64,000 bases of DNA, taken from positions 62,001 through 126,000 of the forward strand of contig OX597841.1 in assembly GCA_951406725.2 (NCBI GenBank), in the 5' to 3' direction. This document shows, in pieces, positions 6,579 to 62,520 of the stretch. The translations under genes and the position numbers were made by a program. The notes under the pieces are model-generated. The model had not been told where the DNA came from, searched no databases, and saw only the letters and a list, made by a program, of their open reading frames with translations. This stretch comes from Octopus vulgaris (lineage: Eukaryota). Every line of letters starts with the position of its first letter. Positions within the stretch are counted from its first letter, which is position 1.

Positions 6579-9500
6579 ATGTTCCAGTCTGCTTTTACTC
6601 GTCCAGCTGCAATGGCAGTGCTGCTGTTAACCCTTACAACAATTCTGATTGTTACCTCAGATCAGGAACTTGATGGCTACTACAAAAGTTTGGGACCTGG
6701 TTATTCCTATGGTTATAATGGGACACCTCCAACAGAACAATTCTTCTCAACACGAAACCTACTCGACTGCACCGCGCTCGCTCAGAGGAGCCAATCGCAA
6801 TTTTTCACTTACAACAAAGTCAGCCATGCTTGTAAGAATTACTCACCGAAAAATATAATGACAGTCGTCAGCACGAATGACACCAACGAGATTTCCTTCT
6901 ATAGAAGTAAGTGAATCTTCTTTATTATTACTGTTTTTCTTTTGTTCTTTTTTATTTTGCTTTTTGCGGTACCAGTTGAAGAGTGAGGTCAATGAAATCG
7001 ACTTACTTTTCTCTCCAATAATTTGCTGGCCTTGTGCCAAAATTTGAAATCAATATTAATATTGTTGTTGCTGTTTGTTTGTTTGTTTGTTGAGCGAAGC
7101 GGTCTCCGTCCCAGTAGTGGGAGAAGTCCGAAACGTGGTCCTTTGCTATTCGTAAGATAACACTTCCAATCACTTAAGATCAGAAGCCATGAGAGCCACT
7201 GTCAGGTACTGCATCAGGGTATTTATTATTATTATCATTATTATTATTATTATTATTATTATAATTATTATTATTATTATTATTATTATTATTATTATTA
7301 CTATTGTTATTATTATAATAATAATAATTATTATTGTTGTTATTGTTGTTGTTGTTGTTGTTATTATATGAAATCTCACAACTTATTTTGCTGGTTATGA
7401 TGGAACGTGTCAGCTGTCCACAGCTTAGCAGACTAAGGTGACGCTTATTTACTGGCCATGCTTCAAGAACTCTGCAAAGAATTCTTACAGTTCCAAGCAA
7501 TGCTTATTCTTTGAAGGTGTTCCACCTTCACACGTGCACCAATCTTTTTTAACCGTGTTGATAGCTAGGTGCTGATACCTCTATCATCATTATTATTACT
7601 ATTGTTGTTATAATTATTATTTCAGATAGCAAATGGATCAAAGTATATGCCATATCAAAGGGAGCTGGTTCGAAAGTCTATAATTCATTCCTGAATATAG
7701 GACTTCCTTCAACCTGGAATGTGGACAAATGCAATGGTACCTTTTGTCCTAACTTCTTCCGACATCCCATCCTTGATTTCTGGAACAATCTTCCAATTGA
7801 TGAGGTATGTATGTCTATGCATGCAGAAACGCGCGAGTGCGAAACACATCATTGTCTTCATAATCGTTATAATGATTAAACGGCTTCTAGATCAATTCAA
7901 TTATGTTTGTAATATATTTGATTTCTAGAAATTATTTATTAGGTTGACGAAGTAGTGTTGTAAAGAATTTTATCTGCGGCAAAACGCAGCAATAAGAATA
8001 TTTATCATAAACGAAAGACTCTCCCTTTTTGGAGAGAGAGAAAGAGATAGATAGACAGATAGATAGATAGTTAGATAGATAGATAGACAGACAAGTAGAT
8101 AGATAGATAGATAGATAGGTAGATATGGTTTTAGTATTTGGTTATTCTTTATGTGAATTTGTGTGTTAAAGCACAGTTTATTGTATCAGGGGAGAGTCAT
8201 TCTCTTTTTGGTGCCTTATTAGTTAACACACGCACCGGTTCGATTTCCACTCATTTACTTATTTTTTCTAAAATTTTCGTTACGTCTTTCAAAAGTCATT
8301 GAGCCTGTCCGTTATCAGGGCTGCGTTCTTTCTGTTTGTTTGTGCGCATGTGTGTGCGTTAGTGTGCATGTGTATACACATACGTATGTATATATGCATA
8401 CATGTATGTATGTGTGTATGCATATATGTGTATGCATATATATATACATATATGTGTGTGTATGCATGTGTGTACGTTTGTATGAATATATGCATGTGTG
8501 CACGTTTGTATTTATGTATGTATGTATGTATATATGTCAGGTCACTTTCGAGTGCTACTGGTAACATGTAACCCATTACAGCCTGTTGCATAGTCGGGCC
8601 GTCTGAGACTAAACCGGCAACCCCACCAAGCTTGCTTGGTGAGGAGCGTGTTTATTCGACACCATGCGGGATGAAAAACAAAACCCGTCAAAGGGCGGAG
8701 GAACTCTTGAGAGTCAATGGTCATCCAATAAATGTATTAAGGATGTATCAAGCGCGAGGACATAGAAATAATCGGACTGAATACCCGATCACGCGGTTAA
8801 ACCATTGGGAGTGAAGGACTTCTAGCCCTTGTTAGGGCATCCTTCTAGGAGAAGCTAGTCAGGTAACTGGGATAACTCCGAGGTCATACTGTATTGAAGG
8901 TTAAGTGATATATACCAGATAGTATCATGGTAGCATATGAGTGAAGTTTAATTAATTATATTATATGATTCATTTAGAGATAGCAAGATACGCCAAATCA
9001 GCAAATACAATCATTCATCAACAGATGCTTGCGTAGTATACTTAAAATTAGATGACCCGAACACACAAGCAATATGGAGCTATGGCAAAGAACAAATCAA
9101 TTTTCGATTAGGGAGTAAATATTTAAGAAAAAGTAGAAGTGGATTGGTAGCACAATTATAAAAGACACACCGAATATAGCGAAAAGTGCTTTACAGTGTA
9201 ATCCGGATGGATATAGAAAGAAAGGTAGGCCTAAGAACTCACATGGCGTAGATCAACAGAAGGAACTAGAGAAAGGGGGACATTCATGGCAGAGTATAAG
9301 TACAGAAGTGAAAAATTATGCGACATGGAATTCAATTATAAGTGGCCTATACTCCGCGTTGGAGGGTTAAAGGCAGGAAAAAAAACATACGTATGGAGCG
9401 AGTGACCAATCAATGTCATTAATTTCGCATGTTAAACAGATTAATTTCGGTCAAGAGAATTATGAAGTAAAAATGAGAGTGGACATTAAGCTAACAGTGA

Positions 9501-61285: not shown

Positions 61286-62520
61286 ATGTTCCAGTCAGCT
61301 TTTACTCGTCCAGCTGCAATGGCAGTGCTGCTGTTAACCCTTACAACAATTCTGGTTGTTACCTCAGATCAGGAACTTGATGGCTACTACAAACGTTTGG
61401 GAACTGGTTATTCCTATGGTTATATTGGGACACCTCCAACAGAACAATTCTCCTCAACACGAAACCTCCTCGACTGCACCGCGCTCGCTCAGAGGAGCCA
61501 ATCGCAATTTTTCACTTACAACAAAGTCAGCCATGCTTGTAAGAATTACTCACCGAAAAATATAATGACAGTCGTCAGCACGAATAACAAGAACGAGATT
61601 TCCTTCTATAGAAGTAAGTGAATCTTCTTTATTATTACTGTTTTTCTTTTGTTCTTTTTTATTTTGCTTTTTGCGGTACCAGTTGAAGAGTGAGGTCAAT
61701 GAAATCGATTTACTTTTCTCTCCAATAATTTGCTGGCCTTGTGCCAAAATTTGAAATCAATATTAATATTGTTGTTGCTGTTTGTTTGTTTGTTTGTTGA
61801 GCGAAGCGGTCTCCGTCCCAGTAGTGGGAGAAGTCCGAAACGTGGTCCTTTGCTATTCGTAAGATAACACTTCCAATCACTTAAGATCAGAAGCCATGAG
61901 AGCCACTGTCAGGTACTGCATCAGGGTATTTATTATTATTATTATTTTTATTATTATTATTATTAATATTATTATTATTATTATTATTATTATTATTATT
62001 ATTATTATTATTATTATTATAATAATAATTATTATTATTGTTGTTGTTGTTGTTGTTGTTGTTGTTGTTGTTGTTATTATTATATGAAATCTCACAACTT
62101 ATTTTGCTGGTTATTATGGAACGTGTCAGCTGTCCACAGCTTAGCAGACTAAGGTGACGCTTATTTACTGGCCATGCTTCAAGAACTCTGCAAAGAATTC
62201 TTACAGTTCCAAGCAATGCTTATTCTTTGAAGGTGTTCCACCTTCACACGTGCACCAATCTTTTTTAACCGTGTTGATAGCTAGGTGCTGATACCTCTAT
62301 CATCATTATTATTACTATTGTTGTTATAATTATTATTTCAGATAGCAAATGGATCAAAGTATATGCCATATCAAAGGGAGCTGGTTCGAAAGTCTATAAT
62401 TCATTCCTGAATATAGGACTTCCTTCAACCTGGAATGTGGACAAATGCAATGGTGCCTTTTGTCCTAACTTCTTCCGACATCCTTTCCTCGATTTCTGGA
62501 ACAATCTTCCAATTGATGAG
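61286..62520 (+). CDS. Copy F, partial: exons 1 (61286-61613) and 2 (62342-62520); gene continues beyond the window
   Basis: Exon-1 protein identical to copy E; exon 2 open; intron 2 collinear with E up to the window end. Confidence 0.85.

Follow-up and report, generated by a model that had tools for sequence, protein, structure and literature searches.

We have analyzed a 64,000-nucleotide stretch of the Octopus vulgaris genome (assembly GCA_951406725.2, contig OX597841.1, forward positions 62,001 to 126,000; hereafter the window, in whose own coordinates all positions below are given) and found a cluster of related genes for a two-domain protein. Each intact copy codes for a hydrophobic leader, a PAN/apple domain and a C-terminal domain that would be a remote relative of fibrinogen-like domains, and the amino acid differences between copies accumulate mostly in one exon, a local variability that is common in proteins with a wide range of recognized targets. 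We consider the chances about even that these genes, arrayed in tandem, code for binding proteins that are secreted and N-glycosylated, i.e., a lectin-like recognition repertoire for microbial or other foreign surfaces. The genes are present in databases without a name and, if this reading is right, would work like FREPs or ficolins, being members of neither. The original prediction, made from the letters of the window, was partly confirmed in what it observed and partly supported in how it interpreted it.

The gene units and their arrangement

Searching the window with the protein of copy A, its exons and a family profile, we found 22 exon copies forming six gene units, and no further divergent exon copies of note within the window. 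This agrees with the predicted number of at least six copies of a five-exon gene, although no more than four units have their full set of exons inside the window, and of these A, B and E alone are intact. Copy A (6579-12253, forward strand; exons 6579-6906, 7626-7804, 9635-9798, 11776-11936 and 12198-12253) has five coding exons that make an open frame of 295 amino acids. The other intact copies are B (22733-33417, reverse strand; exons 33417-33087, 30835-30657, 25284-25121, 23212-23052 and 22788-22733; 296 amino acids), whose exon 1 is 78% identical to that of A, and E (50127-56803, forward strand; exons 50127-50454, 51177-51355, 54129-54292, 56295-56455 and 56748-56803; 295 amino acids). All 12 introns of these three copies have GT-AG ends, and the predicted splice junctions are supported by these sites, by the open frames and by matching RefSeq models in sister species.

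Two of the five assessable units are broken. In copy C (38837-44412, reverse strand; exons 44412-44085, 43383-43205, 40547-40384, 39296-39136 and 38891-38837) the first ATG is altered, with a second in-frame methionine following, and exon 5 has a frameshift that takes away the last of the predicted core strands (residues 285-292); this damage could be an assembly error instead. An orphan exon 3 (18613-18776, reverse strand) and unit D, with exons 4 and 5 only (45145-45305 and 45572-45627, forward strand), are the two halves of a single broken unit lacking exons 1 and 2. Copy F has its exons 1 and 2 at 61286-61613 and 62342-62520 (forward strand), the remainder lying past the window end. Directly before the ATG of A, E, F and C there is a pyrimidine tract with an AG (about 6530-6578, 50080-50126, 61240-61285 and 44460-44413, respectively). 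Because this resembles a splice acceptor, an untranslated first exon is likely in these four copies; the sequence upstream of copy B is different.

The mixed orientation of the units can be explained by one event. A 29.6-kb segment (15472-45066, ends approximate), now lying on the reverse strand, contains copies C and B and the orphan exon 3. Across its two ends the upstream DNA is continuous within about 7 nt, and intron 3 is continuous minus about 400 nt, which argues for a single inversion. Undoing it would restore, in this one assembly, a head-to-tail array A, C, B, orphan/D, E, F. The divergence between copies was 0.8-1.9% in the 5' regions, 3.3-4.9% in the exon-3 regions and 4.6-8.6% in the regions of exons 4 and 5. 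Since the middle and 3' parts are so divergent, the copies are not duplicated haplotypes, and the same figures, together with the paralogs in other species, rule out an assembly artefact of a single-copy gene. Only copy F is not cleared in this respect: its 5' part differs from that of E by 0.84% and F alone could still be a duplicated haplotype.

The family had been described as invisible, which was overstated. An O. vulgaris model (P0002) shares the first 169 amino acids of copy A, although it is cut short and loses the frame after exon 2, and complete models of 293-296 amino acids exist in O. sinensis and O. bimaculoides under the label 'uncharacterized'. The protein of copy B shares 92.6% identity with O. 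sinensis LOC118768578 (P0021), and that of copy E, over 221 amino acids, 99% with O. sinensis P0003. Counting protein records, which are our source for copy numbers outside the window, there are 26 family models in O. sinensis, 12 named loci in O. bimaculoides, 16 models in O. vulgaris (several chimeric) and three in Argonauta hians. This range indicates that the expansion is common to octopods and predates the near-identical copies found here.

The two domains and their relatives

The leader, as predicted, is the only strongly hydrophobic stretch of the proteins (Kyte-Doolittle 15-residue maximum of 2.1-2.65, starting at residue 11, compared with 1.0-1.2 beyond residue 35), which would be consistent with secretion. 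The predicted pairs of cysteines in exons 1, 2 and 4 were also found (64/85, 145/150 and 237/253 in copy A), copy B carrying a seventh cysteine, as were the N-x-T sequons, of which A has six, B five and E three. Cysteines, tryptophans and core motifs are retained in all copies. The motifs listed originally are all there, apart from slight errors of spacing: the one in exon 1, for example, reads C-x10-FFTYN-x5-C and not x11.

Exon 1 (6579-6906, forward strand, in copy A) codes for the leader and for a domain in which the PAN fold, a helix across a five-stranded sheet, is present by structure. The modelled fold supports the early suggestion of a PAN/apple domain that has a single disulfide pair. 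With Pfam PAN_1/PAN_3 the best octopus score was 17 bits, under the cut-off of 21.1, and the domain has two conserved cysteines instead of four to six. The known PAN/apple proteins (HGF-N, plasminogen, MIC4, SML-2 and leech LAPP) differ from it in having two or three pairs.

The C-terminal domain is more difficult to classify. Its structural model (m34c0a48f954c) scored nearly equally against TLDc and fibrinogen-like domains, a hint that both groups may share a fold; we found nothing on this in the literature. TLDc proteins (OXR1, NCOA7, TBC1D24) are intracellular partners of the V-ATPase, in contrast to the octopus proteins with their leader, sequons and cysteine pairs, and there is no sequence match between them; neither did the scanned family proteins match Pfam TLD. 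Compared with ficolins, tachylectin-5, FGL1, angiopoietins (PF00147) and intelectins, the octopus proteins have no PF00147 match, no N-terminal subdomain, no collagen or coiled-coil stalk, and only 5-10% structural identity. The acidic loop that binds calcium in fibrinogen-type domains, DxDxD or DxDND, is absent from the three intact copies. PF00147 was matched by none of 102 alignment members at E ≤ 0.01 and none of 14 in a second scan, the octopus proteins scanned included. The family profiles gave no significant match in PDB (the only weak one was MIC4, E 4.4), Foldseek gave none at E ≤ 0.001 against PDB and viral models, and no NCBIfam model matched the octopus protein. An enzyme was discarded, as no conserved catalytic set was evident among the near-invariant columns.

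With a profile built on 11 octopus proteins, 1027 clusters were retrieved at E ≤ 0.001 out of 1.84 billion representatives; of the 150 that were listed, all distant, the majority align by their C-terminal part. The distant relatives that have a name come from corals, from Branchiostoma belcheri and from one Myxococcota bin (one of 71 loci examined), which rules out an octopus-specific domain. Rather, the C-terminal domain is ancient and widespread, and not a cephalopod novelty. The 51 longer sequences out of 145 new representatives were scanned with Pfam: 13 carried C-type lectin, F5/8, SUEL or WSC domains, nine PAN, nine TSP1 and two ZP, one was an adhesion GPCR and 12 had no match. In coral and some other relatives the fibrinogen N-terminal subdomain with YCDxxxxGGGW, not found in the octopus proteins, sits directly upstream of the C-terminal domain. 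We would place the latter within the fibrinogen ancestry. The PAN-EGF-fibrinogen-N proteins of Oculina, Pocillopora, Stylophora and Orbicella, all uncharacterized, are clear homologs in the C-terminal domain and have an N-terminal PAN, but keep EGF and usually the subdomain, unlike the octopus ones. In Oculina patagonica the locus numbers of P0159, P0196, P0198, P0201, P0202, P0205, P0207 and P0213 are close to each other, which suggests that this coral has its own tandem cluster of genes with PAN, EGF and the C-terminal domain. In bacterial-type proteins (locus L002, a 3360-base contig of the Myxococcota bin, and proteins P0084, P0088, P0105 and P0115) the C-terminal domain occurs in tandem copies that follow YCDxxxxGGGW modules and are accompanied by FG-GAP or TIG repeats.

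FREPs are diversified immune effectors in snails and bivalves, according to the available part of a review (PMC13428168) whose cephalopod passages there name no diversified recognition family. The gastropod and bivalve FREPs resemble the octopus family in being molluscan, duplicated and diversified, and in joining a C-terminal domain of fibrinogen type to an accessory one at the N-terminus. However, FREPs have immunoglobulin domains and a standard FReD, with most of the variation in the immunoglobulin part, whereas here PAN takes the place of immunoglobulin and the C-terminal domain varies. Together with the missing PF00147 match and N-terminal subdomain, this rules out a standard FReD or FREP. 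We found no description of the octopus family or of its C-terminal domain in the literature, although subscription papers and supplements could hold one; the available main text of PMC9068888 mentions neither 'PAN' nor 'fibrinogen', and its supplements or the 2015 octopus genome paper may list the family.

Exon 4 variation and the possible function

The mean proportion of nonsynonymous differences (pN) between copies was 0.044 in exon 2, 0.028 in exon 3 and 0.126 in exon 4. Within the C-terminal domain variability is highest in exon 4 (11776-11936, forward strand, in copy A), around the C237-C253 pair and its GWL motif. In the three pairs of intact copies the pN of exon 4 was 0.117, 0.078 and 0.110, against 0.040, 0.037 and 0.043 in flanks comprising 649 non-coding sites (p 0.0016, 0.055 and 0.0047). 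The nonsynonymous to synonymous rate ratio (omega), from our own codon model, whose one-ratio likelihood equals the IQ-TREE value, was 0.70 in exon 2, 0.31 in exon 3 and 1.29 in exon 4. Model M2a improved on M1a in exon 4 alone (p 0.036), with 41% of sites at omega 3.2; these were residues 225-241, 251-256 and 263, around the same cysteine pair. The data are no more than suggestive of diversifying selection on exon 4: they come from three tests on five sequences, two of them probably dead, and 16 of the 38 informative sites disagree with the best tree, a sign of gene conversion. Among 29 octopod sequences the exon-4 segment was again the most variable (the protein tree, poorly resolved with 4 of 19 branches starred, was not used for the order of events). 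The segment sits after the central hairpin and before the last strand, which we take to be where fibrinogen-like proteins have their ligand-binding P subdomain, a likeness of position and not a residue-level superposition.

These results could be brought together as follows. Each protein would consist of a leader, a PAN/apple domain and a remote fibrinogen-like domain that lost the fibrinogen N-terminal subdomain. A conserved core (exons 2, 3 and 5) would be the constant scaffold presenting a variable, disulfide-pinned region (the end of exon 3 and exon 4). Placed as the P subdomain of ficolins, fibrinogen and intelectin, this region would bind ligand, and tandem duplication, gene conversion and probably diversifying selection would give each copy a distinct binding face. 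The proteins would most likely serve in mucus or haemolymph to recognize microbial or other foreign surfaces, a putative role in defence. The recognition idea of the original prediction gains strength from the fold, from the partners of the domain and from the variation in exon 4, and its lineage expansion held, but the domain is no cephalopod novelty and the expansion is older than the recent copies. A tandem secreted family with birth and death of copies is an ordinary pattern, and the function proposed here is putative.

Even so, a clustered family that counts about 12-26 genes in each octopus genome and varies at one face makes a concrete candidate for a recognition family. More tentatively, and possible rather than probable, the C-terminal domain would be an uncatalogued fibrinogen/TLDc-like branch (corals, amphioxus, molluscs and some myxobacteria), from which octopods would have made tens of recognition proteins linked to PAN. 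Their binding face, encoded mainly by one exon, would owe its diversity to selection and gene conversion, and the repertoire would be the cephalopod equivalent of snail FREPs, assembled from other parts. Found in about a thousand clusters, without Pfam model or solved relative, the domain would extend the fibrinogen-like superfamily, and naming it would label many 'uncharacterized' invertebrate proteins.

It is rather improbable that these are salivary proteins directed at prey, with PAN and variable domain binding prey matrix or haemostatic proteins and a variation that tracks prey range. The matches cited for this rank under HGF, plasminogen and apicomplexan lectins and indicate a shared fold only, and six family motifs or identifiers had no match in the O. 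vulgaris posterior salivary gland supplement (PMC7693380), which may not list peptide sequences. Neither were family motifs found in the ink proteome supplement (PMC10142993), a weak result given its unverified contents. We think it unlikely that the family belongs to a structural or adhesive matrix in mucus, suckers, cuticle or the coverings of eggs, even if relatives carry TSP1, EGF, ZP, VWD and sushi domains and there was a score of 0.89, with 144 of 256 features shared, for the Atlas cluster called 'Skeletal organic matrix protein 5' (a lead only; the available part of PMC3748352 gives no domain description for coral USOMP-5). The proteins have no low-complexity or repeat region, their amino acid change is focused on one segment, and the motifs were not found in the examined part of a skin-mucus peptide table (PMC10138644).

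Quite unlikely, too, are reproductive recognition proteins (sperm, spermatophore or egg coat) diversified by sexual selection: the change is fast and local and two relatives join the domain to ZP domains, but the variation is between paralogs of one genome and the 5' halves are near-identical between species (E and P0003, as above). We give equally little credit to largely dispensable duplicates in an unstable, repeat-rich region, with exon-4 variety from relaxed constraint and conversion from older paralogs, for although the broken units, the inversion and a deletion, an omega not significantly above 1 and the strong mosaicism suit it, exon 3 is under purifying selection, the core residues persist, intact relatives are maintained in three Octopus species and Argonauta, and exon 4 exceeds its own flanks.

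Short tandem runs of a 184-bp repeat unit (86-95% identity; 21 matches listed, e.g., 12788-13337, 37386-38305, 46153-46520 and 57335-57701) lie downstream of gene units and in introns, and may promote unequal crossing-over. Intron 3 of the orphan unit contains an insertion (16395-17979) that the other copies lack; it has a CCHC zinc-knuckle frame (17434-16973, reverse strand) and is probably a retrotransposon remnant. Outside the array, a frame of 126 amino acids (4043-3666, reverse strand) presumably resembles the GIY-YIG endonuclease end of a Penelope-like element.
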